Part shown: in pieces, positions 4,335 through 16,941 of the stretch
Position numbering within the stretch: position 1 is the stretch's first letter
How the letters are laid out: each line of letters starts with the position of its first letter
Assembly: GCA_002392285.1 (NCBI GenBank)
Contig: DGGR01000036.1
Coordinates: 1 to 16,941 of the forward strand
Source of the DNA: Verrucomicrobia bacterium UBA3869
GTDB lineage: Bacteria > Verrucomicrobiota > Verrucomicrobiia > Opitutales > UBA9783
Length of the DNA stretch: 16,941 nt
Direction of reading: 5' to 3'
Position numbers and translations under genes: made by a program
The notes under the pieces: generated by a model
The model's input: the letters and a program-made list of their open reading frames with translations, nothing else
What the model was told of the DNA's origin: nothing
Databases searched by the model: none

Positions 4335-5249
4335 TTATTGAATCGGAGCACAAACCTTGATCGGTACGATTACTTCTTCATACCCCATGGCCGAAATATA
4401 AAGCTTCCCGTCACCTGGTTCACCACCTTCAAGGCTTATAGTCGCGCTATCTTCTCCTGCAGCAATCTTAACTTCGGGCATGATAACGCTATCAGGAATG
4501 TTGGTTGTTACGTTAATAGCCAGCGAATCCGTCACCGGGCCATCCAATCTAACTGTTAAAGCAACCTGTTCTCCTTGACCAATCTCCAATTGGGACGGTT
4601 GAACCATCAATTGCTTGCTATCGATCAACAAATTACCTACGAAATCCGTTTTACGTTCCCGTATGCAATACACAGGATAAGCTTTGCCGCTCATTAAATG
4701 AGGCACAACAAATGAAATAGCGTTTTCAGAATAAAAGGTAGTCCATACTTCACATTGTCCAATCACCACGCGATCGTTCGCTGTAAATTCGCTACCAATG
4801 ATGCGTACTTCCGCTCCTACCGGGGCTCGTTCAAACTGCAACATAGAAGCTCCATGCTCTGAAATAACATATTCCGTCAATGGTGTCGTGTACGTATACG
4901 TACGGATAGACTTGGAGCTGGATATCGATTGATAACTTACCTCAAAGTAATACCGCGCCTTCTTTCGATCATTCCCTAAGGTATAATCTGCATAGTAAAC
5001 ATCGGGCTTAATAGCATCTGCTTTCAAAGGTACTCGCTTGCCGTCAATGACTAACATCGGCGCAAAGGTACCCGCAATCGCTTTGGATTTAGAAATTTTA
5101 CTGCCAACGGTAAAACGATATAAATTAGAGGGATTACGCGGACAATTAACCGTTAAATCCGTTAACTTTTCCCGGCAACCGGACAATCCCATCAGGCTTA
5201 ACAAAGCTGTTAATGATAGTGATTTAAATAAAAAACAACGAATAGTCAT
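4335..5249 (-). CDS. Lipoprotein with IPT/TIG-like and other beta-sandwich domains, function unknown
   Basis: Signal peptide plus lipobox: MTIRCFLFKSLSLTALLSLMGLSG|C. The middle segment 'GAEVRIIGSEFTANDRVVIGQCEV...ISFVVP' resembles an IPT/TIG domain. The C-terminal 'VKIAAGEDSATISLEGGEPGDGKLYISA' is Calx-beta/Big-like. Confidence 0.6.
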   Translation of the reverse strand: MTIRCFLFKSLSLTALLSLMGLSGCREKLTDLTVNCPRNPSNLYRFTVGSKISKSKAIAGTFAPMLVIDGKRVPLKADAIKPDVYYADYTLGNDRKKARYYFEVSYQSISSSKSIRTYTYTTPLTEYVISEHGASMLQFERAPVGAEVRIIGSEFTANDRVVIGQCEVWTTFYSENAISFVVPHLMSGKAYPVYCIRERKTDFVGNLLIDSKQLMVQPSQLEIGQGEQVALTVRLDGPVTDSLAINVTTNIPDSVIMPEVKIAAGEDSATISLEGGEPGDGKLYISAMGYEEVIVPIKVCAPIQ

Positions 5250-6475: not shown

Positions 6476-7210
6476 TTATTTTCGGTTCAAGGCGCACCTT
6501 AAAGAGGGTAGGCAAGTAAAGATAAAACCAAAAACAAATAAAGCTATATAAGTACTTGGCGTATGAAATTGTAATCGCCAATCATAACCTAAGAGCTGCA
6601 GGGGAATTAGAGCTATACATAGCAATTCCAACCCCAAAATACGCACCCAAACAACAAGGTTCCTTAAAGCAAACCCTGTAATCACTCCTATCAAACAAAT
6701 AAAAGGCTCCCATATGCAGGTATGGATAGGGCTTGTCACGTTCAACCACAAGCCAACGAACAAACAAGCTAATGCCGTTAGCACCCATTCCGCATAATCA
6801 TAACGATCCAACCACAATACCATCGGTAGCTCCATTACTCCAAATAAAAACCCACCCAGCACCTCTAAAGGCCGATGATCCTCGAAATAGACCATACCAG
6901 CTCCTGCACAAAGTATTAAAGCTAAACCAATGCCTAATCCCCACAACCGTTTGGTGCACCCTAATAGATACCCATAAACAATCGTTAACGCATGGGTATG
7001 CCCACTCGGAAATCCATAGCCTCCACAAGGGGTAAACCATGGCCAAGCAAACCACTGCTTCAATACGCTATTCCAGGTCCCCACCAACAAGAGCAATAAC
7101 AAAGCCCGTATAAACATACGACGGGATCCAAACAAAACACCCAAAGCAATCATCCCTCCCATAATTAAGGAATGGGATAATGAATAACAAAGTATAAAGA
7201 ATAGTCTCAC
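6476..7210 (-). CDS. Divergent PAP2-superfamily-like polytopic membrane protein (paralog B)
   Basis: About 7 hydrophobic helices. It has 'GFPSGHTHA' (the PSGH C2 motif, codons 6998-7009) and 'DHRPLEVLGG' (an HxxxD/E-like C3 remnant). No canonical KxxxxxxRP or SR motif is present. The GTG start overlaps the upstream stop (GTGA). Confidence 0.45.
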   Translation of the reverse strand: MRLFFILCYSLSHSLIMGGMIALGVLFGSRRMFIRALLLLLLVGTWNSVLKQWFAWPWFTPCGGYGFPSGHTHALTIVYGYLLGCTKRLWGLGIGLALILCAGAGMVYFEDHRPLEVLGGFLFGVMELPMVLWLDRYDYAEWVLTALACLFVGLWLNVTSPIHTCIWEPFICLIGVITGFALRNLVVWVRILGLELLCIALIPLQLLGYDWRLQFHTPSTYIALFVFGFIFTCLPSLRCALNRK

Positions 7211-7956
7211 CCGTAATGCTTTAAGAGTTGAAAATTGGGTAAACAGGTAAGGATAAAAGCAATACTGACTAATCCCAGATAATAATCAATAGATGAGGAT
7301 TCGATTACATTACTTAACCAAGTACAAATGATAAGAATCGCACCTATCCCTATCCATTGTTTCAATGCATAAGGGATTTTCATTCCTATCAAAACACCGA
7401 TAAAACACGCTAAGGGTTCCATCATCCGCGTTTGAGTATTGGAGCACATTAACCATAGAACCGTGCAACACATGACCCATACGAATAACCCTTGTTCCAA
7501 GCGATTATTTTTTTCTAACCAAAATACCACCGGTAGTTCCAGTATCCCAAATACAATACCTCCCCATACGCAAATCCAAGTATGGCATTTAAAATAGACT
7601 ACTGACGGAGCCGTTAAGGCTAATATAGTCAACCATAACACTACCAACCAAAGTTTTTTTTGCCGAAGCAACCAATAACCCCAAGCTGCCGTCAAAGCTT
7701 GCATATGGGTTGATGGAAACCCGTAGCCATACCCCCAAGGGGTAAACAGCTCTATCTGAAACCACTCTTTTAATAACGAACCAAAGACAGCGGTAGCGGC
7801 ATATACCAGCCACACATGCAGATAGGTTTTGCGCGAACCCAACAGGATCCCCGAAATCACAATGATGGCGATGAAATACACCCGAACCATCACAAATGCC
7901 ATACTCATCCAATTATGCACCAACAGCTGATGCAGATACGCCGATGCAGTATCCAT
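7207..7956 (-). CDS. PAP2-like polytopic membrane protein, motif-degenerate paralog A
   Basis: Clearly paralogous to 6476-7210: LKEWFQIELFTPWGYGYGFPSTH versus LKQWFAWPWFTPCGGYGFPSGH. PSGH is changed to PSTH (7705-7716) and the C3 acidic residue to Cys (CHTWICVWGG). An SD-like GAGGAG/AAGGGG lies in the 23-nt gap after nrdG. Confidence 0.4.
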   Translation of the reverse strand: MDTASAYLHQLLVHNWMSMAFVMVRVYFIAIIVISGILLGSRKTYLHVWLVYAATAVFGSLLKEWFQIELFTPWGYGYGFPSTHMQALTAAWGYWLLRQKKLWLVVLWLTILALTAPSVVYFKCHTWICVWGGIVFGILELPVVFWLEKNNRLEQGLFVWVMCCTVLWLMCSNTQTRMMEPLACFIGVLIGMKIPYALKQWIGIGAILIICTWLSNVIESSSIDYYLGLVSIAFILTCLPNFQLLKHYG

Positions 7957-7979: not shown

Positions 7980-8666
7980 TTAGGGGCGAAAAAACACGTT
8001 ATTACAATAATTTTTAGCAATCGCCAAATAACGTTCAATTATTTCTCCATCTTGAGGGGTTTCAGGTTTATGCTGCGCAATATAACAACGCTGTAAGTAC
8101 CAATGAGCTGAAGGATGGATTTGGGATCCTAAGTTTCGCAAGGCAGCCTCATCAATCCAATCGCGCGCTAACGTAGTACGAAATTCATAGGTACCCGGCG
8201 CACGCTGCAACACTACTTGCATCGATGTTTTTATATTGGCTACTAAGCTGGTTTGTTCAGCTGGTTCAGCCAACTGAGGATAACGATCCAAAGACGTTTT
8301 TAGATCCATTGCAATATAATCAACTAACGGGCTGATCAACCGCACCACCTCCGGATGGCTTCCGTTGGTATCAACCTTTACTTTCAATCCTAAGCGCTTA
8401 AAACGTTCGATCAAAAGCATTAAATCGGATGGATCCGTAGTTGGTTCTCCCCCGCTGATACACACCCCACTGATGAGTTTACGCGCTTTTTGCAGATAAA
8501 CTTCAATGGCGGACAATTCCAACCCATCACGTTTAACATCCTCCGTAAGGGTTTTATTATGGCAATAGGGACAATGAAAATTGCAGACTGGTATAAATAC
8601 CACGCTGCATACTTCACCCGGATAATCGCTTAACGAATGGACTAAAAAACCATACCGCTTAAGCAT
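7980..8666 (-). CDS. nrdG: Anaerobic ribonucleoside-triphosphate reductase activating protein (radical SAM)
   Basis: 'GEVCSVVFIPVCNFHCPYCHN' contains CxxxCxxC in the NrdG/PflA-activase context. 'ISGGEPT' is the SAM-binding motif. The gene begins 8 nt downstream of nrdD with an AAGGAA SD. Confidence 0.85.
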   Translation of the reverse strand: MLKRYGFLVHSLSDYPGEVCSVVFIPVCNFHCPYCHNKTLTEDVKRDGLELSAIEVYLQKARKLISGVCISGGEPTTDPSDLMLLIERFKRLGLKVKVDTNGSHPEVVRLISPLVDYIAMDLKTSLDRYPQLAEPAEQTSLVANIKTSMQVVLQRAPGTYEFRTTLARDWIDEAALRNLGSQIHPSAHWYLQRCYIAQHKPETPQDGEIIERYLAIAKNYCNNVFFRP

Positions 8667-8674
8667 GCTATTCC

Positions 8675-11065
8675 TTAAGAACCGGTGCTTACGTACCGCT
8701 TAATTTCTTCTGAATCGTATACCACTTCAGGTCGGTTGGGAACCACTAAGGCTGGTAAGTTATGAATATGATAACGTTTGGCAAGCTCCAATCCTGAGGT
8801 TTCGGATGTATTTACATACGTTCCGTTAAAATGATTTTCAGCTAAGAATGGCTTTAAGGACCGACATTTAACACAAGAATCGCTATGGAAAAATAGCGCT
8901 TGCTGAACAGCCGGCATTGGATCCTCTTGTTTTGTTTCGCAACAAGCGGATTCCGCTTCACACCCACCTGAAGTTGCATCATTCTTACCAAACGGCAAAT
9001 GGGAATGCGCTGCATCATACGTTAACCGATGCCTAAACTCTTCCTTCTTACCTTTATTCCAAAACTTAACGGCTCGGTAATATCCGGTAATACGGCTGTA
9101 GACTTCCATTTCGGATCCACACTTCGGACAATGTTCCACCTGACCTTCGCAACGGCCATGGGTTCCGCATACCGAAAATGTCGGTGAAATCGATACATAA
9201 GGCACCCGATAATTGCTCACAATCTTACGCACCAACGTACGGCACGACTGAGCATCCGGTAACGCTTCTCCCAAAAACACATGGAATACGGTACCTCCTG
9301 TATATTTTGTTTGAATCTCCTCTTGATGCTCTAACGCCTCAAATACGTTCGATGTATAATCAACAGGCAAGTTAGACGAATTGGTGTAATAAGGATCCTC
9401 GCTTCCCGATTGAATCATCTCTGGGAACATCTTTTTATCGATTTTAGCCAAACGATACGAAGTTCCTTCAGCGGGTGTTGATTCCAAATTGTACAAATTA
9501 CCGGTTTTCTCCTGATAATCCCGTAACCGATCGCGCATATGCAACAATACCCGTTGAACAAACGCATGCCCTGCCTCACTTGCAATCGATTGATGCAAGA
9601 AATTTAAACAACATTCATGCATACCAACCAATCCAATTGTGGAGAAATGGTTATTAAACGTATGTAAATAACGCTTGGTATAGGGGAACAATCCTTGATC
9701 CAACCAAGATTGAATCACCTTACGCTTACATTCTAATGAATCCTTTGCCAAATCCATCAAGGTATCCAAACGCTGGAAAAATTCCGTTTCTGAAGTGCTC
9801 AAATAGCCCAAACGCGGCATGTTGATGGTTACAACTCCAATCGAACCTGTAAATTCATCTGATCCGAACAATCCACCACCACGGCGCCTTAATTCTCGTT
9901 TATCCAAAGTCAAGCGGCAGCACATACTACGGACATCCGATGGATTTAGATCCGAATTAATGAAATTCTGGAAGTAAGGGGTTCCGTATTTAGCAGTCAT
10001 TGTGAACAACAAGTCTGTATTTTCACCCTCCCAATTAAAATCCTTTGTAATATTGTAAGTCGGAATAGGATAAGCAAACCCACGACCATTCGCATCCCCT
10101 TCAAGCATCACCTCTAAAAAGGCCCGGTTGATCATATCAATCTCTTTCTGACAATCCTTGTAACAGAAATCGCATTCCTTACCGCCAACAATAGCCTTTT
10201 TATCCGCTAAATCCTTTGGACATACCCAATCCAAAGTAATGTTTGAAAAAGGAGGCTGTGATCCCCATCGCGAGGACGTATTCATGCTAAAAACAAAGCT
10301 TTGCATACACTGCTTCACTTGTTCAAACGTTAGGTGGTCACTTTTAACAAAGGGAGCTAAATAGGTATCAAAGCTAGAAAGCGCCTGAGCACCCGCCCAT
10401 TCGTTTTGCATTGTCCCTATAAAGTTAATGATATGCCAAATAGCCGTTGAAAAGTGCTTAGCTGGCTTCGATCCAACCTTACCCTCAACCCCACTGATGC
10501 CCAATTCTAACAACTGACGCAAGCTCCAGCCGGCACAATACCCAGCAAACATGGATAAATCATGCAAATGAAAATCCCCGTTTTTATGCGCCTGAGCAAT
10601 TTTTTCATCGTAAATACGACTCAACCAATAATTGGCAGTAATCGCTCCTGCGTTGTGCAAGACAAGCCCACCGACCGAATAATGCATACTGCTATTTTCA
10701 TGGACGCGCCAATCGCTTTGATGAAGATAATCTTCCATCGTTTTCCCGATGTCTAACACCAACGCTTGACCTTCGCGGATTTGGCGGTGTTGGTCACGAT
10801 ATAAGATGAACGCTTTAGCAACTTTTTCAAAATGCTCTTGCATCAAGCAATGCTCAATCAAATCCTGAACCTCCTCAACCGATGGAATTGCACGCTCAGG
10901 ATAACGTTCCAACTCAGACAACACCTTCTCGCTTAAGCGTTGTACCAAAGAAACATCACATTGAGGGCTTACCGCTAAAAAGGCTCTATGGATTGCACTA
11001 AAAATGCGTTCCAAGTCAAACGGAACGACAGCCCCATTACGTTTACGAATAGAAAGTTCAGTCAT
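8675..11065 (-). CDS. nrdD: Class III (anaerobic) ribonucleotide reductase with an ATP-cone and a C-terminal thioredoxin-fold extension
   Basis: - N-terminal ATP-cone: IRKRNGAVVPFDLERI.
- Finger-loop motif 'VRSMCCRL' (Cys-Cys codons 9917-9922).
- Cys-rich zinc-ribbon region 'CPKCGS'.
- Glycyl-radical motif 'SRITGYYR' (Gly codon 9083-9085).
- After that motif come 135 more residues, ending in 'ALFFHSDSCVKCRSLKPFL...YHIHNLPALVV', a thioredoxin-like pattern of beta1, CxxC and a cis-Pro region. Confidence 0.92.
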   Translation of the reverse strand: MTELSIRKRNGAVVPFDLERIFSAIHRAFLAVSPQCDVSLVQRLSEKVLSELERYPERAIPSVEEVQDLIEHCLMQEHFEKVAKAFILYRDQHRQIREGQALVLDIGKTMEDYLHQSDWRVHENSSMHYSVGGLVLHNAGAITANYWLSRIYDEKIAQAHKNGDFHLHDLSMFAGYCAGWSLRQLLELGISGVEGKVGSKPAKHFSTAIWHIINFIGTMQNEWAGAQALSSFDTYLAPFVKSDHLTFEQVKQCMQSFVFSMNTSSRWGSQPPFSNITLDWVCPKDLADKKAIVGGKECDFCYKDCQKEIDMINRAFLEVMLEGDANGRGFAYPIPTYNITKDFNWEGENTDLLFTMTAKYGTPYFQNFINSDLNPSDVRSMCCRLTLDKRELRRRGGGLFGSDEFTGSIGVVTINMPRLGYLSTSETEFFQRLDTLMDLAKDSLECKRKVIQSWLDQGLFPYTKRYLHTFNNHFSTIGLVGMHECCLNFLHQSIASEAGHAFVQRVLLHMRDRLRDYQEKTGNLYNLESTPAEGTSYRLAKIDKKMFPEMIQSGSEDPYYTNSSNLPVDYTSNVFEALEHQEEIQTKYTGGTVFHVFLGEALPDAQSCRTLVRKIVSNYRVPYVSISPTFSVCGTHGRCEGQVEHCPKCGSEMEVYSRITGYYRAVKFWNKGKKEEFRHRLTYDAAHSHLPFGKNDATSGGCEAESACCETKQEDPMPAVQQALFFHSDSCVKCRSLKPFLAENHFNGTYVNTSETSGLELAKRYHIHNLPALVVPNRPEVVYDSEEIKRYVSTGS

Positions 11066-11214: not shown

Positions 11215-12288
11215 TTATCGTTTCATGGGGATATACGGTGCCTTTTCTACCTTGTTTTTGTTCTCTTGCAACCAACGAATTACATGCGCAATCGGTTCAA
11301 TTAATTCATGCGGAATATAGTCCCCCTCATCCGCCAAATCATACAATGCATGAGCCAATGGCACATCCTCCAAAATCGGTATGTCGTACTGGCAAGCCGT
11401 TTTCTTCATCAATTGCGCCTGAAAATCGATTCCTTTAGCCAAAACCAAGGGCAATTTGGTCACAAGACGATTATAGTAAATAGCAACCGCATAGTGCGTT
11501 GGGTTCACAATGACGGCCGAAGCACGCTTTGTACGTACCGCCGGTCCCCCTTGCAATAATTCCCGATGCATCTGCTTACGCTTACCTTTAATAGTAGGAT
11601 CCCCTTCTTGTTCTTTAAATTCACGTTTAACCTCATCCTTGGTCATCATCAGCTGCTTCAGGTGATTTCTGCGCTGAAAAACAAAATCGATAAATGCTAC
11701 CACGACATAGGCAAAAATCACATTACAGACAAAGGTTTTCATGATACTGGGCATAACATCCATTAAATCCTCCAAGTTCATAAACGGGGTTTTTAATAGC
11801 GGATCGAGCACATTGCGGATAACAAAATACAACAAAACCCCCAAAAATATAATTTTGAACGCAGATTTTAAGAACTCCACCAGGTTTTTAATAGAAAATA
11901 TCTGCTTCAATTTAGAAATGGGATTGAGTTTGTTTAAATCCGGCTTAACCGACTCAAAGGCCAAAAGTAATCCGAACTGGAGCATATGAGCTGCCACACC
12001 AGTAATGATCACCAACAATAAGAGAGGCAAAACCACCTGAACAAACCCCGAAAGCCCAGCAGCTATGATTCGCTGACACGCCCCTATAAACGGTTCATTA
12101 TACAAGGTAGCCGGAACCTCTATTAATGCCCCTAGCGTTTGTAAAACAGCTTCTCGACGTATCCCTAAATACGCAAAAACAATGATCAGTAAAGCAGTAG
12201 AAGTTACATCCTTACTGTTAGCAACCTGCCCTTTTTTTCGGGCATCCCGTATTTTTTTAGCAGTTGGCTGTTCTGTTTTTTCACTCAT
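11215..12288 (-). CDS. sctU: Type III secretion export-apparatus switch protein SctU (YscU/CdsU-like; FlhB family)
   Basis: N-terminus 'MSEKTEQPTAKKIRDARKKGQVANSKDV' and 'VKPDLNKLNPISKLKQIFSIKNLVEFLKS' closely resemble YscU as I recall it, and resemble flagellar FlhB less. The autocleavage motif NPTH is present (codons 11494-11505). Four TM segments and a 357-aa length fit the family. Confidence 0.88.
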   Translation of the reverse strand: MSEKTEQPTAKKIRDARKKGQVANSKDVTSTALLIIVFAYLGIRREAVLQTLGALIEVPATLYNEPFIGACQRIIAAGLSGFVQVVLPLLLLVIITGVAAHMLQFGLLLAFESVKPDLNKLNPISKLKQIFSIKNLVEFLKSAFKIIFLGVLLYFVIRNVLDPLLKTPFMNLEDLMDVMPSIMKTFVCNVIFAYVVVAFIDFVFQRRNHLKQLMMTKDEVKREFKEQEGDPTIKGKRKQMHRELLQGGPAVRTKRASAVIVNPTHYAVAIYYNRLVTKLPLVLAKGIDFQAQLMKKTACQYDIPILEDVPLAHALYDLADEGDYIPHELIEPIAHVIRWLQENKNKVEKAPYIPMKR

Positions 12289-13078
12289 GTAACAACCTTA
12301 AAAATTGTAAAACGACTGTACGACAATCAAAACGCCCCACAAAATATTGAGCTAAATAATATAAATACAGGATAAAGAAGAACATGGACAGTTCGCTTTT
12401 AATCGGCATGGATAAAAAGAACACGTTCAACTGAGGAGCAAAGCGCGTCACTAAACCCAATCCAAATTCCGCCAAGAACAAAACGAACAAAACGGGACCT
12501 CCCAATAAGGCAATTTGGTTAAACAATTCCGTCCCCATTCCATGATTAAAGAAGTGAATCCATTCCTTTCCTAAAGCAGTTGGGAAAGCAAATATAGGGC
12601 ATAATTCATAAGTGACATAAATAGCTTTCAAAATGAGGAACAACCCTCCACAACTAACCGCCAACACCATAACAAATTTGATTAAAAAATCACCCAAAGG
12701 ACTGGTTTGAGAATTGGATAAAGGGTCAAATAAGCTAGCCATGGATGATCCGCGTTGCGTATCCAGGATAAATCCAACGCTTTGAGCTGCATAAAACCAA
12801 AAGTTGGTCAACCACCCTAAAATCATTCCCAACAAGGCTTCTTTGAAAAGAATTAATACAAATAACCAACGGCTTTCGTTTAAAACCACCAATCCCTGCG
12901 CATACACCGCAGGCATTAGCAGCATAGCAAACGTTACCGTTACAACACGCCGTGCAGTCCCTGATAAGTATTGCGAGGCAAAGAACACCGATAGCGAACA
13001 AAAGCCGAACATACGGCTACCACTAATCCCTAAAATCAATAGCCAATCCAACAATGGCTTTAGGGCATCGAAGTTCAT
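12281..13078 (-). CDS. sctT: Type III secretion export-gate protein SctT (YscT/FliR family)
   Basis: 265-aa polytopic membrane protein with a FliR/SctT-like profile. It sits between sctS and sctU with overlapping stop/start codons at both ends (ATGA at 13075-13078; 8-nt overlap at 12281-12288). Confidence 0.8.
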   Translation of the reverse strand: MNFDALKPLLDWLLILGISGSRMFGFCSLSVFFASQYLSGTARRVVTVTFAMLLMPAVYAQGLVVLNESRWLFVLILFKEALLGMILGWLTNFWFYAAQSVGFILDTQRGSSMASLFDPLSNSQTSPLGDFLIKFVMVLAVSCGGLFLILKAIYVTYELCPIFAFPTALGKEWIHFFNHGMGTELFNQIALLGGPVLFVLFLAEFGLGLVTRFAPQLNVFFLSMPIKSELSMFFFILYLYYLAQYFVGRFDCRTVVLQFLRLLHE

Positions 13079-13365
13079 CGCCCAAACGGTTGCTTAATAA
13101 GCATGAAGATGGATTCCAAATAACGCACCATCTCAATTCCCATCCAATGGGCGCTCAATACTAACACACAAGTAATACATACAAGACGAACCGCAAAGCT
13201 GAGTGTTTGTTCCTGCACCTGGGTTAACGCTTGTAATAAACTAACGCCCAACCCAACAAATGTTGCCAACAAAATAGAGGGTAAAGAAAGCAACAATACA
13301 ATGGTCATCGCTTTCGACGATAAATCAACAATAGCATTCTGATCCACAAAGTTATTGTACCCCAT
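13075..13365 (-). CDS. sctS: Type III secretion export-gate protein SctS (YscS/FliQ family)
   Basis: 'LLLSLPSILLATFVGLGVSLLQALTQVQEQTLSFAVRL' matches the FliQ/SctS hairpin, including the 'TQxQEQTL' core. I prefer the internal ATG at 13363-13365, giving 96 aa. It is preceded by GGAGGG (13369-13374). The longer 131-aa ORF would overlap the divergent radical-SAM start and add a non-homologous N-terminus. Confidence 0.8.
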   Translation of the reverse strand: MGYNNFVDQNAIVDLSSKAMTIVLLLSLPSILLATFVGLGVSLLQALTQVQEQTLSFAVRLVCITCVLVLSAHWMGIEMVRYLESIFMLIKQPFGR

Positions 13366-13368
13366 ATT

Positions 13369-13374
13369 CCCTCC
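13369..13374 (-). promoter_or_regulatory. Shine-Dalgarno sequence for sctS
   Basis: The minus strand reads GGAGGG-AAT-ATG. This is the strongest SD-like element I saw in the window. Confidence 0.5.
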
Positions 13375-13461
13375 ATACGCAAATGCTTCCAACAAGTTCT
13401 TCTGGATAAAAAACTCGCGCTTTACCCTAATCTTTGATAATTTTCTGTTAAATTTTTCAAA

Positions 13462-14496
13462 ATGACTCAATTTCTACGCACATTACAATCCGTTCGACGC
13501 TTTGCTGACTACCGAAAGCATCGGATTCCCAACAAAGATATTTTAATCGATATTAGCAATGTCTGTAACGCTCAGTGTTATTATTGTCCCATCGGATTAG
13601 CCAATCGAAAGGGTGCTCCTAGCTGCAGCCAATCAGGCGCTCCCAGCTTCATGCCGACTGATTTGTTTCAAAAAATCCTTCAACATTTGAAAGACACCCA
13701 GTGGCTACAACCCCATACCTGTTTACTCCCTTATATATGGCATGAACCACTGTTACATCCGGAATTCGCATCCATCATCCGCATCGCCAATCACTTTAAT
13801 TGTCCTCTAGATATCTCTACCAACGCAAACGTGCTCCCCAAAATCCCCAATGATTTTGATGCAAGCCGTATCTACATCGTTTGGTTTTCCATGCCAGGAT
13901 TTAGCCAACAGTCGTACGATAAAATCCACAAATTCGACTTTGAACGCATTAAGCACAATATTACAACCCTCGTACATACCTTCCGTGAACATGGCTGCAT
14001 TGGCCATTTCAAAATTGCCTTCCATGTCTATCAGTCAAATATTCATGAGCTTCCAGCAGCCTATGAATTTGCTCGCTCCCTTCATATCGATTGCCAACCT
14101 TATTTTGCAACCTTAATCAGCTTTAAAGACATTGCGCGCTACTTGAAGCAAGAGCTGTCCATGGATTTCTTAAGTAAGATCTCGCGTGATTTATTCATGG
14201 GGCTAACGCTCAATCTCAAAGGGCCACAATCAACCTGTCCGTGGTACAACAACGGATTGGCTATCGATAGCCAAGGAAATGTGTTACCTTGTTGCAACGA
14301 AACAGACCCTCTTGGCTCAGTATTCGAAGTAACGCCAGAAAAATTACGCGAATGGCACCAGGGCTACGATTTTTGTAAGGAATGCCTAGCGCTAGGGTTG
14401 CCTAATCGCGACAATGCTTATTGTGATTTCTATCCCCCTCATTACAACTGGCATCGGCAATGGTACTTGGAAGTATTAAAACAATGTTTGCGTTAG
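13462..14496 (+). CDS. Radical-SAM protein with a SPASM/twitch-like C-terminal Cys cluster, paralog 1 (unassigned family)
   Basis: - CNAQCYYC (Cx3Cx2C, residues 35-42, codons 13564-13587).
- 'WHEPLLHP', a GGE-like SAM motif, and 'STNAN'.
- Family block 'SMPGFSQQSYDKIHKFDFERIK'.
- C-terminal 'CPWYNNGLAIDSQGNVLPCC' (CX12GX4C-C), then 'CKEC', then a distal 'QCL'. Confidence 0.8.
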   Translation: MTQFLRTLQSVRRFADYRKHRIPNKDILIDISNVCNAQCYYCPIGLANRKGAPSCSQSGAPSFMPTDLFQKILQHLKDTQWLQPHTCLLPYIWHEPLLHPEFASIIRIANHFNCPLDISTNANVLPKIPNDFDASRIYIVWFSMPGFSQQSYDKIHKFDFERIKHNITTLVHTFREHGCIGHFKIAFHVYQSNIHELPAAYEFARSLHIDCQPYFATLISFKDIARYLKQELSMDFLSKISRDLFMGLTLNLKGPQSTCPWYNNGLAIDSQGNVLPCCNETDPLGSVFEVTPEKLREWHQGYDFCKECLALGLPNRDNAYCDFYPPHYNWHRQWYLEVLKQCLR

Positions 14497-14500
14497 CATT

Positions 14501-15559
14501 ATGACTCAATTTCTACGAGCACTGAAAAGTCTTACCCATTTTGCTGCCTATAAAGCAAATCGGCATCGTAAATCAATCTTGGTTGAAATCAGTAATGTTT
14601 GTAACGCCCAATGTTACTATTGCCAAACGGGCTGGGAGAACCGTAATCACATAACCCATCCGGGTACCTCATTCATGGAGGTTGAGCGTTTTAAGCAGAT
14701 TTTGGCGTATGCCAGAAAAACTTCCTTTGTAAAAGGGCAATCCTTAGTAACACTGCACAATTGGCACGAACCGTTACTGCATCCCGATTTCCCATCCATC
14801 ATTAAAGCTGCTCAACAGGCTAGCTATTGCGTAGAGTTGAGCACTAATGCTAACGTTTTGCCTAAAATTTCCCCTGATTTTGATGCAAGTCCGATTGCCA
14901 TGACTATTTTTTCCATGCCAGGGTTTAGCCAAGCATCATACGATAAAATCCACCGCTTCGATTTCGAGCATATCAAGCATAACATTGCTCAAATTGTAAA
15001 AACTTTTCGCCAACATGGCTGTTTTGGACGCTTCATCATTGCATTTCACGTCTACCAATTCAATACGCATGAACTTCAAGCTGCAAAAGCATTTGCACGG
15101 TCATTAGCGATTGATCTATGGCCTTATTTTGCCTTTATCTGCGATGGGCCGCGGCATTTACAGTACCTAAAGGGTACACTTCCTAACGATTACTTGTTGA
15201 ATGTTTCCAAGGATCTTTTTATGGGGTTCTATATGAAGAATCTAAAACCTTCAACCTTCTGCCCCGTTGCCAAAAACCTAACGGTGGATGTGGATGGGAA
15301 CTGCCGCATGTGCTGTAATGACGACACATTGTTGGGTAATGTATTTGAAATGACTCCGGAGCGTTGGGATCGCATTCATCAAGAGCATCCGGTCTGTAAA
15401 GAATGTATGGCATTAGGAAAGGCCAATTGGGAGTTGGCGGACGATTTGAATTTTCCGCTACAAGGGTTTGCACAATTTAAACGCATTAACTTTACCTACT
15501 TAAAAGCATTTGCCCTAACCTGTCTGCAATCGCCCAAAGCCGAAAACGCAAAACCTTAA
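14501..15559 (+). CDS. Radical-SAM protein with a SPASM/twitch-like C-terminal Cys cluster, paralog 2
   Basis: Motif set: CNAQCYYC, WHEPLLHP, STNAN, SMPGFSQASYDKIHRFDFEHIK, 'CPVAKNLTVDVDGNCRMCC' (CX11GX4C-C) and CKEC. It starts 4 nt after the paralog 1 stop. The first 17 nt are identical to those of paralog 1. Confidence 0.8.
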   Translation: MTQFLRALKSLTHFAAYKANRHRKSILVEISNVCNAQCYYCQTGWENRNHITHPGTSFMEVERFKQILAYARKTSFVKGQSLVTLHNWHEPLLHPDFPSIIKAAQQASYCVELSTNANVLPKISPDFDASPIAMTIFSMPGFSQASYDKIHRFDFEHIKHNIAQIVKTFRQHGCFGRFIIAFHVYQFNTHELQAAKAFARSLAIDLWPYFAFICDGPRHLQYLKGTLPNDYLLNVSKDLFMGFYMKNLKPSTFCPVAKNLTVDVDGNCRMCCNDDTLLGNVFEMTPERWDRIHQEHPVCKECMALGKANWELADDLNFPLQGFAQFKRINFTYLKAFALTCLQSPKAENAKP

Positions 15560-15586
15560 ATCCTTAATGTTCACAAACCCAACGGT

Positions 15587-16618
15587 ATGCAGTGCTTAAA
15601 GGCCCTTAAAGCAGCTAAGCGTTTTTTATCCTATCAAACCCATAAGACAGGGCGTTCGGTTATTTTAGAAATTAGCGCTATCTGTAACGCTCAGTGTGCC
15701 TATTGCCAAACGGGCTTCAATAACCGCAACGGTTCAGGGTGCAAAGAAAATCCGTTTATATCGGTCGAGTTGTTTACACGCATCGTCCAGTATTTAAAAG
15801 CTCAGCGCTTCCTAACCGCCGGCACTTTGCTCAACCTGTATTCTTGGGGCGAACCCCTCCTACATCCTGAATTTGCAACGCTCGTTCACGTCGCAACCCA
15901 AGAACACTGTTTGTTGGGATTAAGCACGAACGCTAACTACTTACCCAAATTGCCTAACAATTTCGACGCTAGCCATATCGCAGTTGTGTACATCTCTATG
16001 CCCGGGTTTAGCCAGGCATCGTACGACAAGATCCACCGCTTCGATTTTGAGCATATCAAGGCAAATATTCAGCGCTTGGTACAGGATTTTAGAAGCCATG
16101 GGTTTTTCGGTATTTTTGATATCCGTTTTCACGTTTACCGTTTTAATCAAGCTGAGATTGCGCCTGCTCAAGCCTTTGCGCAATCCCTCGGAATAGCGTT
16201 TCATCCCTATTATGCTTACATCAACGATGGCGCAAGGGTAGCTCGTTATTTCCAAGGAACTTTAGACGCAGCTTATCGCCAACAAGCAGCGGACGATTTG
16301 TTCATGGATTATTATGACCCTTATTTCAAACCCAGCACAACCTGCCCCATGCTCAACCGTACGTATTTAGACGTACAGGGGCGCTGCGCCTTGTGCTGCA
16401 TGAACGGAACCACGGTTGGTTCTATCTTTGACCATACGCTTAGCTCGTTAACCAAAGCACGCGACCAACATCCGGCGTGTCAAGCCTGCCGACAATCAGG
16501 GTTGGCTTCGGTTATGAACACCTGCATTAATTACGATTTTACGTTGAACGATACATCAACCAAAGGCTTAAGGTATTTTTATCAATGCCTAAAGACCTGC
16601 TTTTTGTCTCACCAATAG
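15587..16618 (+). CDS. Radical-SAM protein with a SPASM/twitch-like C-terminal Cys cluster, paralog 3
   Basis: Motif set: CNAQCAYC, WGEPLLHP, STNAN, SMPGFSQASYDKIHRFDFEHIK (this 22-aa block is identical to paralog 2), 'CPMLNRTYLDVQGRCALCC' and CQAC. It starts 27 nt after paralog 2. Confidence 0.8.
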   Translation: MQCLKALKAAKRFLSYQTHKTGRSVILEISAICNAQCAYCQTGFNNRNGSGCKENPFISVELFTRIVQYLKAQRFLTAGTLLNLYSWGEPLLHPEFATLVHVATQEHCLLGLSTNANYLPKLPNNFDASHIAVVYISMPGFSQASYDKIHRFDFEHIKANIQRLVQDFRSHGFFGIFDIRFHVYRFNQAEIAPAQAFAQSLGIAFHPYYAYINDGARVARYFQGTLDAAYRQQAADDLFMDYYDPYFKPSTTCPMLNRTYLDVQGRCALCCMNGTTVGSIFDHTLSSLTKARDQHPACQACRQSGLASVMNTCINYDFTLNDTSTKGLRYFYQCLKTCFLSHQ

Positions 16619-16653
16619 CCACAAACCCGGTCTTTTTGTAAAAACAAAAAATC

Positions 16654-16683
16654 TTGCCATTTTTGAGGGTAAAAAGTTATTTT
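16654..16683 (+). promoter_or_regulatory. Candidate promoter for dnaN
   Basis: TTGCCA (16654-16659), an 18-nt spacer, then TATTTT (16678-16683). The -10 element ends 7 nt before the dnaN ATG, which would imply a leaderless or near-leaderless mRNA. Weak pattern match only. Confidence 0.2.
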
Positions 16684-16690
16684 GGTAGTG

Positions 16691-16941
16691 ATGAAATTCC
16701 AAATCGAAAAAAATGCTTTTGTAAATGGACTCACGCAAGTTCTGAACATTGTTGGAACCCGTGCAGCGCTTCCTGTTCTATCCAATGTTCTGATAAAAGC
16801 TCAAGATGATGCATTAGAGCTAACCACCACTAACCTAGATATTGGAATTCGCTGTACCGTAACCGCAACGGTACAAACCCCGGGCACGTTAACGTTACCT
16901 GCCCGTAAGTTGGCAGCCATTGTTAAAGCTTTACCAGAGGG
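16691..16941 (+). CDS. dnaN: DNA polymerase III beta sliding clamp, 3'-truncated by the window edge
   Basis: This ORF is absent from the ORF track because it has no stop in the window. My translation from ATG 16691 is [83 protein letters not shown]. This is the canonical DnaN N-terminal domain pattern (LP(V/I)LSNVL, L.L..TDL, G....PA+.L..IV+.LP). Confidence 0.88.

Follow-up and report, generated by a model that had tools for sequence, protein, structure and literature searches.

Three tandem twitch-like radical-SAM paralogs beside a type III secretion export gate in an Opitutales genome, candidate sugar-tailoring enzymes

Why should three divergent radical S-adenosylmethionine (SAM) genes stand in tandem at a place where no substrate gene adjoins them? 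The question is raised by a stretch of 16,941 nucleotides (nt) from Verrucomicrobia bacterium UBA3869, a member of the Opitutales (assembly GCA_002392285.1, contig DGGR01000036.1; 'the window' hereafter means this stretch at its full length), in which three tandem open reading frames (ORFs), given the working names rS1, rS2 and rS3 in their order on the + strand, lie between the export-gate genes of a type III secretion system (T3SS) and dnaN. We favour, with about an even chance of being right, the explanation that rS1-3 are independent twitch-type radical-SAM enzymes that tailor sugars or glycans and whose substrate is encoded elsewhere. Threefold paralogy without a substrate gene would then be the outcome of a lineage-specific expansion, with the substrate pathway lying elsewhere in the genome. 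The three genes and their cysteine motifs are placed as follows.

13462..14496, + strand: rS1, 344 aa, radical-SAM/twitch paralog, Opitutales clade A in the neighbour-joining (NJ) tree
14501..15559, + strand: rS2, 352 aa, radical-SAM/twitch paralog, clade B in the NJ tree
15587..16618, + strand: rS3, 343 aa, radical-SAM/twitch paralog, clade C, the clade that stands alone at the same slot in related genomes
13564..13587, + strand: rS1 CX3CX2C (C35, C39, C42), sequence motif of the radical-SAM [4Fe-4S] cluster
14600..14623, + strand: rS2 CX3CX2C (C34, C38, C41), sequence motif
15683..15706, + strand: rS3 CX3CX2C (C33, C37, C40), sequence motif
14236..14385, + strand: rS1 twitch-like block C259-X12-G-X4-C277C278...C305-X2-C308, motif with a sub-threshold Pfam SPASM match
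15260..15406, + strand: rS2 twitch-like block C254-X11-G-X4-C271C272...C299-X2-C302, motif and predicted secondary structure from AlphaFold2 (AF2)
16343..16489, + strand: rS3 twitch-like block C253...C270C271...C298-X2-C301, motif

An earlier note, made from the letters alone, had described three same-strand ORFs of 343-352 aa, separated by 4 nt (rS1/rS2) and 27 nt (rS2/rS3), mutually paralogous over their full length and identical at about half of their positions. The coordinates were reproduced exactly, and end-to-end alignment gives identities of 50% (rS1/rS2), 42% (rS1/rS3) and 43% (rS2/rS3).

Family placement of the three paralogs

Every signature motif quoted in that note is present in rS1-3, namely, the N-terminal leader (MTQFLR/MQCLK), CNAQCxYC at residues 33-42, W(H/G)EPLLHP, STNAN, DFDAS and SMPGFSQxSYDKIHxFDFExIK. 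Its account of the C-terminal cysteines stands in part: CX11-12GX4CC is indeed followed, 26 residues on, by CX2C, but the distal conserved cysteine that it listed after them has no common alignment column across rS1-3 and is absent from most of the wider family, the members of which end shortly past CX2C. Membership in the radical-SAM superfamily is indicated by CX3CX2C, by the predicted partial TIM-barrel core and by the scores of rS2 (31.8 bits) and rS3 (32.5 bits) against PF04055, which exceed the Pfam gathering threshold of 29.5 bits; rS1 alone falls below it (21.3 bits). The Pfam SPASM profile (PF13186) matches only rS1, at 15.8 bits against a cut-off of 21.5, and this match (residues 259-287, profile positions 1-34) covers the first half of the profile only. 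The full seven-cysteine SPASM motif, CX9-15GX4C - gap - CX2CX5CX3C - gap - C, is not found in rS1-3; its CX2CX5CX3C part is absent, implying that a second auxiliary cluster is lacking. What is left fits, in cysteine pattern and predicted secondary structure, a twitch-type C-terminal domain, half of a SPASM domain, which in rS1-3 probably binds one auxiliary [4Fe-4S] cluster.

Comparison with curated profiles places the proteins in no established family. TIGR04317 is the top NCBIfam profile for every member tested, scoring 54-63 bits on rS1-3 and 47-73 bits on ten other members against a cut-off of 380. The NCBIfam models of BlsE (TIGR04466, cut-off 400), MoaA (231-325) and prokaryotic viperin (180) do not reach their cut-offs, with all scores at or below 40 bits, and the peptide-maturase models also give at most 40 bits on rS1-3, while N_Twi_rSAM yields 14-26 bits against a cut-off of 170. 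There is no anSME model among the NCBIfam matches at E <= 0.1 (all 13 for rS1, the best 25 of 26 for rS2 and the best 25 of 28 for rS3). When PDB sequences were compared with the family profile defined below, the best were BtrN and BlsE, at ~31 bits and in the N-terminal core only; with the C-terminal domain alone, the PDB sequences gave nothing but noise.

The AF2 model of rS2 (predicted local distance difference test score, pLDDT, 87.9; predicted template modelling (TM) score, pTM, 0.89) displays an alternating beta/alpha core and, in its C-terminal part, a beta-hairpin (residues 259-262 and 267-269) followed by a helix (297-305) carrying the CX2C motif. A Foldseek search of the PDB with this model returned 89 matches at E <= 0.001, of which the 50 listed are all radical-SAM proteins; BlsE comes first, then SuiB, CteB, anSME, DesII, MoaA and viperin, at TM-scores of ~0.5 and 11-17% identity, and the leading matches are all enzymes of the SPASM/twitch class. 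By these comparisons, rS1-3 belong to the SPASM/twitch structural class and to none of its characterised families. The motif pattern and the predicted structure are thus consistent with the earlier assignment of the genes to half-SPASM/twitch radical-SAM enzymes. The remark that their signature block fits no named family also holds, in that SPASM is matched below threshold and the best NCBIfam profile scores far below its cut-off; searches with hidden Markov models gave no strong match to a characterised family.

We define here the 'GFSQxSYDKIH' radical-SAM family, to which rS1-3 belong, by the motifs W(G/H)EPLLHP, STNxS, SxxGFSQxSYx(K/R)IH and HxYxFNxxE together with five C-terminal cysteines. 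The three proteins score 456-465 bits against the family profile (rS1 456), values that are partly circular because rS1-3 are in the seed alignment; independent members share the family motifs. Among Pfam and NCBIfam there is no curated model covering the family, and we found no paper on it and no biochemical study of any of its members. Within a well-known superfamily, it forms a sub-family of fair size that has yet to be characterised.

Conservation was assessed over 185 family representatives, with residue numbers given as in rS2. The three radical-SAM cysteines and the five C-terminal cysteines are 89-95% conserved, CX3CX2C reaching 95% and each of C254, C271, C272, C299 and C302 at least 89%. 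Conserved positions in the N-terminal part are C34, C38 and C41, W88-G-E90-P91 (of WxEPLLHP) and S114-T115-N116, and those in the middle part are S138..G141-F-S-Q144..S146-Y147..K149..H151, N161, H183..Y185..F187-N188..E191 and A211. Such motif conservation is far beyond chance. With many conserved polar and aromatic residues and a single conserved basic one, the set looks more like a sugar-binding site than a nucleotide-phosphate site.

Relatives and the likely substrate

The number of relatives depends on the method: a word-index search recovered 42, a degenerate-pattern genome scan (one genome per species) 406 confirmed stretches, and an exhaustive profile search 555 representative clusters at 50% identity (E <= 1e-30). 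Outside Opitutales, the family is mostly single-copy and is found in nucleotide-sugar or glycan loci, as in the following genomes (GT, glycosyltransferase family; TPR, tetratricopeptide repeat; MAG, metagenome-assembled genome).

Maridesulfovibrio (L004): member gene after an epimerase/dehydratase gene and two GT2 genes
Desulfobacter MAG (L005): member gene after GT1 and Methyltransf_21 genes, facing a double GT2, DegT, an acetyltransferase and NeuB
Natronincolaceae (L007): member gene amid GT2, three epimerase/dehydratase genes, DegT, an NTP-transferase, a pyruvyltransferase, a formyltransferase and NeuB
Clostridium tertium (L050): flagellin glycosylation island, in which the member gene has a flagellin gene on either side and keeps company with a TPR-GT2, a GT-methyltransferase, an ATP-grasp enzyme, a pyruvyltransferase and DegT
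Pseudoalteromonadaceae MAG (L034): member gene closing a 10-gene deoxysugar-decoration operon with a sugar C-methyltransferase, DegT, thiamine pyrophosphate-dependent E1 subunits, an acyltransferase, two TylF O-methyltransferases, a PhyH dioxygenase and a CmcI-type rhamnosyl O-methyltransferase

The leading families among the immediate neighbours at 56 non-Opitutales loci (n=106) are class I methyltransferases (8), TPR proteins (7) and GT2, GT41, NAD epimerase/dehydratase and further radical-SAM/SPASM proteins (6 each). Within five genes, a more distant radical-SAM gene is present at 18 of the 56 loci and a DegT aminotransferase gene at 11. Clustering of all ORFs of 80 loci revealed no universal partner gene. 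Furthermore, the 150 best representatives include eight long multidomain proteins, seven of which fuse the family domain to glycosyltransferase domains, in the layouts WbsX-methyltransferase-TPR-rSAM, GT2-rSAM, rSAM-WbsX and rSAM-GT2-GT1/GT4 (rSAM, radical-SAM domain).

Relatives in glycan loci and fusions to glycosyltransferases, the latter being the strongest evidence, argue for a sugar substrate on which those transferases also act, and the lack of both a RiPP (ribosomally made, post-translationally modified peptide) recognition element (RRE) and a precursor ORF argues against a peptide. A cell-surface sugar rather than a peptide is the most likely target of rS1-3. These contexts and fusions agree with the earlier idea that the substrate is not a peptide or is encoded at a distance.

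If rS1-3 are sugar-tailoring enzymes, each of them would act alone. SAM would be reductively cleaved at the CX3CX2C cluster, and the resulting 5'-deoxyadenosyl radical would remove hydrogen from a sugar at an unactivated C-H. This sugar would be one of the residues of a glycan in the cell envelope, or else the precursor of such a residue, linked to a nucleotide or to a lipid. If an electron then passed to the auxiliary cluster, the product might be a keto-sugar, as in BtrN-like dehydrogenation, a route that would suit the frequent DegT aminotransferase neighbours. Alternatively, a conserved cysteine might return hydrogen and so produce an epimer, the route known from HygY and NeoN; with five conserved C-terminal cysteines, the CC doublet would provide one cysteine beyond the need of the cluster. 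The paralogs may differ in the sugar or in the position acted on, and the substrate, together with the glycosyltransferases, would be encoded elsewhere in the genome.

Several points weigh against sugar tailoring by rS1-3. The reaction type is a guess by analogy. The Opitutales paralogs adjoin housekeeping genes, not glycosyltransferases, and their glycan link is transferred from relatives 26-37% identical to them; the sole hint of glycans within Opitutales is a deoxythymidine diphosphate (dTDP)-sugar operon 2.5-7 kb from one solitary copy (clade D, below). The counts of neighbouring genes lack a matched background for comparison. Moreover, the terminal helices specific to the Opitutales copies (described in the next section) could mark a changed substrate or location, and long repeat proteins beside a proteobacterial sub-branch allow a protein substrate there.

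In that more distant proteobacterial branch (L064, L070-L085; 150-170 bits), member genes lie beside long, secreted-looking 'PGTYV/GSYV'-repeat proteins and beside TPR and GT41 (O-GlcNAc-transferase-like) genes, for example at L075 5890-9560 and L076 10879-12597, which suggests glycosylation or modification of the repeat protein. Two further observations concern other relatives. The Desulfobacter locus has, just upstream of its GT1, Methyltransf_21 and member genes, a run of radical-SAM/SPASM genes (L005 1-7218, OY762069.1), at least six in number and 333-340 aa in length, which a B12-binding radical-SAM gene interrupts once; this is a much larger array within a glycan locus. Many members of 400-460 aa have an extra domain of ~100 aa at either end (the N-terminus in P0040, the C-terminus in P0054), which resembles the N-terminal, UDP-sugar-binding domain of PglD at ~20 bits, below the cut-off of 23.4, and is a lead rather than evidence; the Opitutales copies lack it.

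Less probable, though the foremost of the alternatives, is that rS1-3 mature a protein or a peptide whose gene lies at a distance, be it as an anSME-like sulfatase maturase, a TIGR04317-like metalloenzyme maturase or an RRE-less RiPP maturase. Gut bacteria of the Planctomycetes-Verrucomicrobia-Chlamydiae (PVC) group are rich in sulfatases, TIGR04317 is consistently the top NCBIfam profile, SuiB, CteB and anSME appear in Foldseek at E-values similar to that of BlsE, the proteobacterial sub-branch stands beside repeat proteins, and no glycan gene adjoins the paralogs in Opitutales. By contrast, the TIGR04317 scores of 47-73 bits compare with a cut-off of 380, and anSME is missing from the NCBIfam matches given above. 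Peptide maturation is also opposed by the protein and its surroundings: CX3CX2C begins after just 32-34 residues, Pfam gives no RRE or PqqD-like match in rS1-3, and the motif for a second SPASM cluster is wanting. A check of both flanking gaps (13366-13461 and 16619-16690) found no credible ORF, and neither the window nor 7 related Opitutales loci hold an adjoining precursor, transporter or protease gene, so that the earlier note was right to see no room for an RRE, gaps too short for a precursor gene and no such partner nearby. Finally, the contexts and fusions of the family involve glycosyltransferases and sugar enzymes, not peptides, proteases or transporters.

Copy number and selection in Opitutales

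The slot occupied by rS1-3 is bounded by the following features.

13075..13365, - strand: sctS, which opens the divergent run sctS-sctT-sctU-nrdD-nrdG (TIGR01403, 89.9 bits against a cut-off of 76.5; ortholog of 96 aa in L003 and L008)
13366..13461, no strand: divergent intergenic region of 96 nt between sctS (-) and rS1 (+), with no ORF inside
16691..16941, + strand: 5' end of dnaN, running off the window (read from the sequence; the L003 ortholog has DNA_pol3_beta domains)

The neighbours named in the earlier note, a T3SS export gate and dnaN, are borne out: sctS, sctT and sctU (11215-13365, - strand) exceed the non-flagellar NCBIfam cut-offs, and dnaN starts at ~16691. A flagellar export gate (FliQ/R/FlhB), which would link the locus to flagellin glycosylation, was considered and rejected, since the SctS/T/U models score over their cut-offs and the flagellar models do not. 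The sct genes form one co-directional run with nrdD and nrdG (7980-11065, - strand), past which lie two PAP2 genes and then hemW on the + strand. The PAP2-family phosphatase genes are tandem paralogs (6476-7210 and 7207-7956, - strand; 244 and 249 aa) with a 4-nt overlap, directly downstream of nrdG; they are kept in L003 and L008 and match no NCBIfam family. Between glgA and hemW there is also an ORF of 304 aa (4335-5249, - strand) with a weak IPT/TIG-domain match and no NCBIfam match. No Rfam match was found in the window or in L003, and a promoter and terminator scan gave weak promoter-like matches in 13366..13461, fewer than in shuffled sequences, which are not promoter evidence.

The locus is also present, with the same triplet and 97% identity in rS2, in 'MAG: Opitutales bacterium isolate Horse_feces372' (L008), and an ENA metagenome contig (L003) is syntenic with the window. 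Five other MAGs, which bear the label Opitutales or Verrucomicrobia and come from the rumen where the record names a source, carry versions of greater divergence. An origin in Chlamydiae, to which the T3SS, nrdDG and dnaN context had pointed, was rejected on the strength of these matches to six MAGs, four of them labelled Opitutales and two uncultured Verrucomicrobia; the host is a gut member of the Opitutales. The order sctU-sctT-sctS-rSAM-dnaN is kept in six MAGs with these labels. Two helices are shared by the Opitutales copies and absent elsewhere in the family: a basic, K/R-rich one at the N-terminus (net charge +3 to +6, predicted at residues 2-19), specific to the clade, and one at the C-terminus. 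Membrane tethering, partner docking and a lid are possibilities for their role.

These helices bear on a second alternative, which we regard as unlikely, that rS1-3 modify membrane lipids or the lipid part of lipid A or lipopolysaccharide (LPS), tethered by the basic N-terminal helix and acting on an acyl or isoprenoid chain. Besides the helix itself, it draws on envelope genes nearby, namely the two PAP2 genes on the upstream side and, downstream, a Lol-like ABC transporter, a GFO/IDH/MocA oxidoreductase and LpxB, and on weak sequence and fold matches to the lipid enzyme GDGT-MAS/Tes. However, the helix has a modest hydrophobic moment (0.19-0.58), the Tes matches are marginal (21.5 bits; TM 0.28-0.38), and there is no such helix in the wider family, which is linked to glycan genes. 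Moreover, dnaN or the T3SS genes separate the envelope neighbours from the triplet, and these neighbours are not conserved at other paralog loci.

In the NJ tree, all gut Opitutales copies form one clade with sub-clades A-F.

Sub-clade A: rS1, L001_c, P0014, P0018
Sub-clade B: rS2, P0002
Sub-clade C: rS3 and the singletons L012, L014, L016, L018
Sub-clade D: singletons among housekeeping genes
Sub-clade E: L001_a, L001_b
Sub-clade F: L019, P0022

Four related MAGs (L012, L014, L016 and L018) have the arrangement sctU-sctT-(sctS)-one clade-C gene-dnaN, that is, a single copy in the slot. This implies that a single copy between sctS and dnaN was the ancestral state of the slot, where the window lineage has three; two older, divergent paralogs were added in tandem in that lineage. 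The triplet belongs, in turn, to an expansion specific to Opitutales, with at least seven copies per genome at its height: the horse-faeces MAG has at least that many, comprising a window-type triplet, a second triplet and a clade-D singleton. The second triplet (L001 7469-11032, contig JAKSVZ010000002.1, Horse_feces372) consists of clades E, E and A and lies between a Na+/H+ antiporter gene and topA; just past topA there is a gene for an FkbM-type methyltransferase (Methyltransf_21). The clade-D copies are found among rpsU, ksgA and argS, or beside DNA-repair and type II secretion system (T2SS) ATPase genes. In L003, a 750-nt AT-rich non-coding insert (9251-10000), absent from the window and L008, splits the orthologs of rS2 and rS3; neither an Rfam match nor a long ORF is found in this insert.

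This history is relevant to the idea, raised in the earlier note, of an obligate hetero-oligomer or a fixed three-step pathway acting on one substrate. The spacing of 4 and 27 nt suggests co-transcription, the triplet keeps its order in the window, L008 and L003, three related sequences, and a second triplet is found in the horse-faeces MAG. Nevertheless, clade C stands alone at the same slot in four MAGs, clade-D copies are solitary, the second triplet is made up of other clades, the L003 insert parts rS2 from rS3, and outside Opitutales the family is mostly single-copy. The single slot copies, the solitary clade D, the differing second triplet and the insert thus argue against a three-subunit enzyme or a fixed cassette, so that an obligate three-part enzyme is unlikely and a three-step unit improbable to a similar degree; independent enzymes with diverged specificity are favoured. 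Comparison of gene neighbourhoods, one of the checks proposed earlier, showed that the triplet recurs in L008 and L003 and that no conserved precursor or partner gene adjoins it in related genomes.

The genes are intact and under strong purifying selection. Against the L008 and L003 orthologs, the ratio of nonsynonymous to synonymous substitution rates (dN/dS) is 0.075-0.081 for rS1, 0.034-0.044 for rS2 and 0.049-0.092 for rS3, compared with 0.07 for sctU and 0.05 for nrdD. Since these values are low and the catalytic cysteines are kept, rS1-3 are not decaying paralogs, and the cysteine loss in orthologs that the earlier note had named as a sign of decay was not observed. Redundant or decaying duplicates without distinct function, which the spread of copy numbers in related MAGs (1 to at least 7) might suggest, are therefore close to refuted, given dN/dS of 0.03-0.09 per gene, the retention of all catalytic cysteines and family-invariant residues, and paralog identities of 42-50% that point to old, maintained duplications.

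Significance and comparison with known systems

To our knowledge, nearly all radical-SAM chemistry on carbohydrates that has been described belongs to antibiotic pathways (BtrN, DesII, BlsE, HygY and NeoN). The 'GFSQxSYDKIH' family is widespread in anaerobes and repeatedly found in, or fused to, glycosyltransferase machinery, pointing to an unexplored layer of radical glycan tailoring, and its hosts include cultured organisms, Clostridium tertium (member gene at L050 9971-11320) and Aeromonas enteropelogenes CECT 4487 (L049 9995-11269). We tentatively propose, as a possibility well short of an even chance, that the family is a new radical-SAM class tailoring sugars in concert with glycosyltransferases (on flagellin, S-layer and envelope glycans of anaerobes), with up to seven helix-tagged Opitutales paralogs diversifying surface glycans; as its chemistry, epimerisation, oxidation and a new C-H functionalisation are conceivable. 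There is at most a very slim chance that the copy beside the T3SS export gate across Opitutales genera serves glycosylation of a T3SS-associated protein, an idea by analogy that would mirror the place of the family in flagellin glycosylation islands. The value of the window itself is more modest, as it represents the tandem expansion of one lineage and not a new multi-part system.

Among known systems, TIGR04317 (W_rSAM_matur, 'tungsten cofactor oxidoreductase radical SAM maturase') resembles the family along up to ~270 of 349 profile positions, but no aldehyde:ferredoxin oxidoreductase gene adjoins the members at the loci for which Pfam families were assigned. The SPASM maturases anSME (4k36-39), SuiB (5v1q-t) and CteB (5wgg/5why) share the fold class (Foldseek E ~1e-8, TM ~0.5) and the first half of the SPASM motif, CX9-15GX4C, whereas the family lacks CX2CX5CX3C, hence the second auxiliary cluster, and has neither RRE nor precursor gene. 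For anSME in particular the similarity is at the level of the fold only, the SPASM motif being incomplete in rS1-3.

The closest structural likeness is to BlsE, the cytosylglucuronate decarboxylase (PDB 7vob), which is the top Foldseek match (E 2.7e-9, TM 0.52/0.56); DesII (PDB 8hzv/8hzy) is also among the matches, and both enzymes act on sugars. Identity to them is, however, 13-17% with a root-mean-square deviation of 8-12 A, and the NCBIfam BlsE model scores 18-28 bits against 400. BtrN, the 2-deoxy-scyllo-inosamine dehydrogenase of the butirosin pathway (PDB 4m7s/4m7t), is the founding twitch radical-SAM enzyme. Like the family, it combines a radical-SAM core with a short C-terminal domain that has the cysteine pattern for one auxiliary cluster, and its substrate is a carbohydrate. 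It is also the best PDB sequence match to the family profile, although at 31.6 bits and over the N-terminal 80 residues only, and the frequent DegT neighbour in the family parallels the BtrN/BtrS pair. By contrast, BtrN lies outside the best 50 of the 89 Foldseek matches, no aminoglycoside cluster is found at the family loci, and the family has a conserved CC doublet and motifs of its own (SMPGFSQASYDKIH, FHVYQFNxxE).

HygY and NeoN are twitch radical-SAM carbohydrate epimerases in which a cysteine returns hydrogen, for which PMC10991966 is one source. They differ from the family in belonging to aminoglycoside pathways and in not being fused to glycosyltransferases. Nevertheless, they would be a plausible mechanistic analogue, combining a twitch domain with an extra conserved cysteine.

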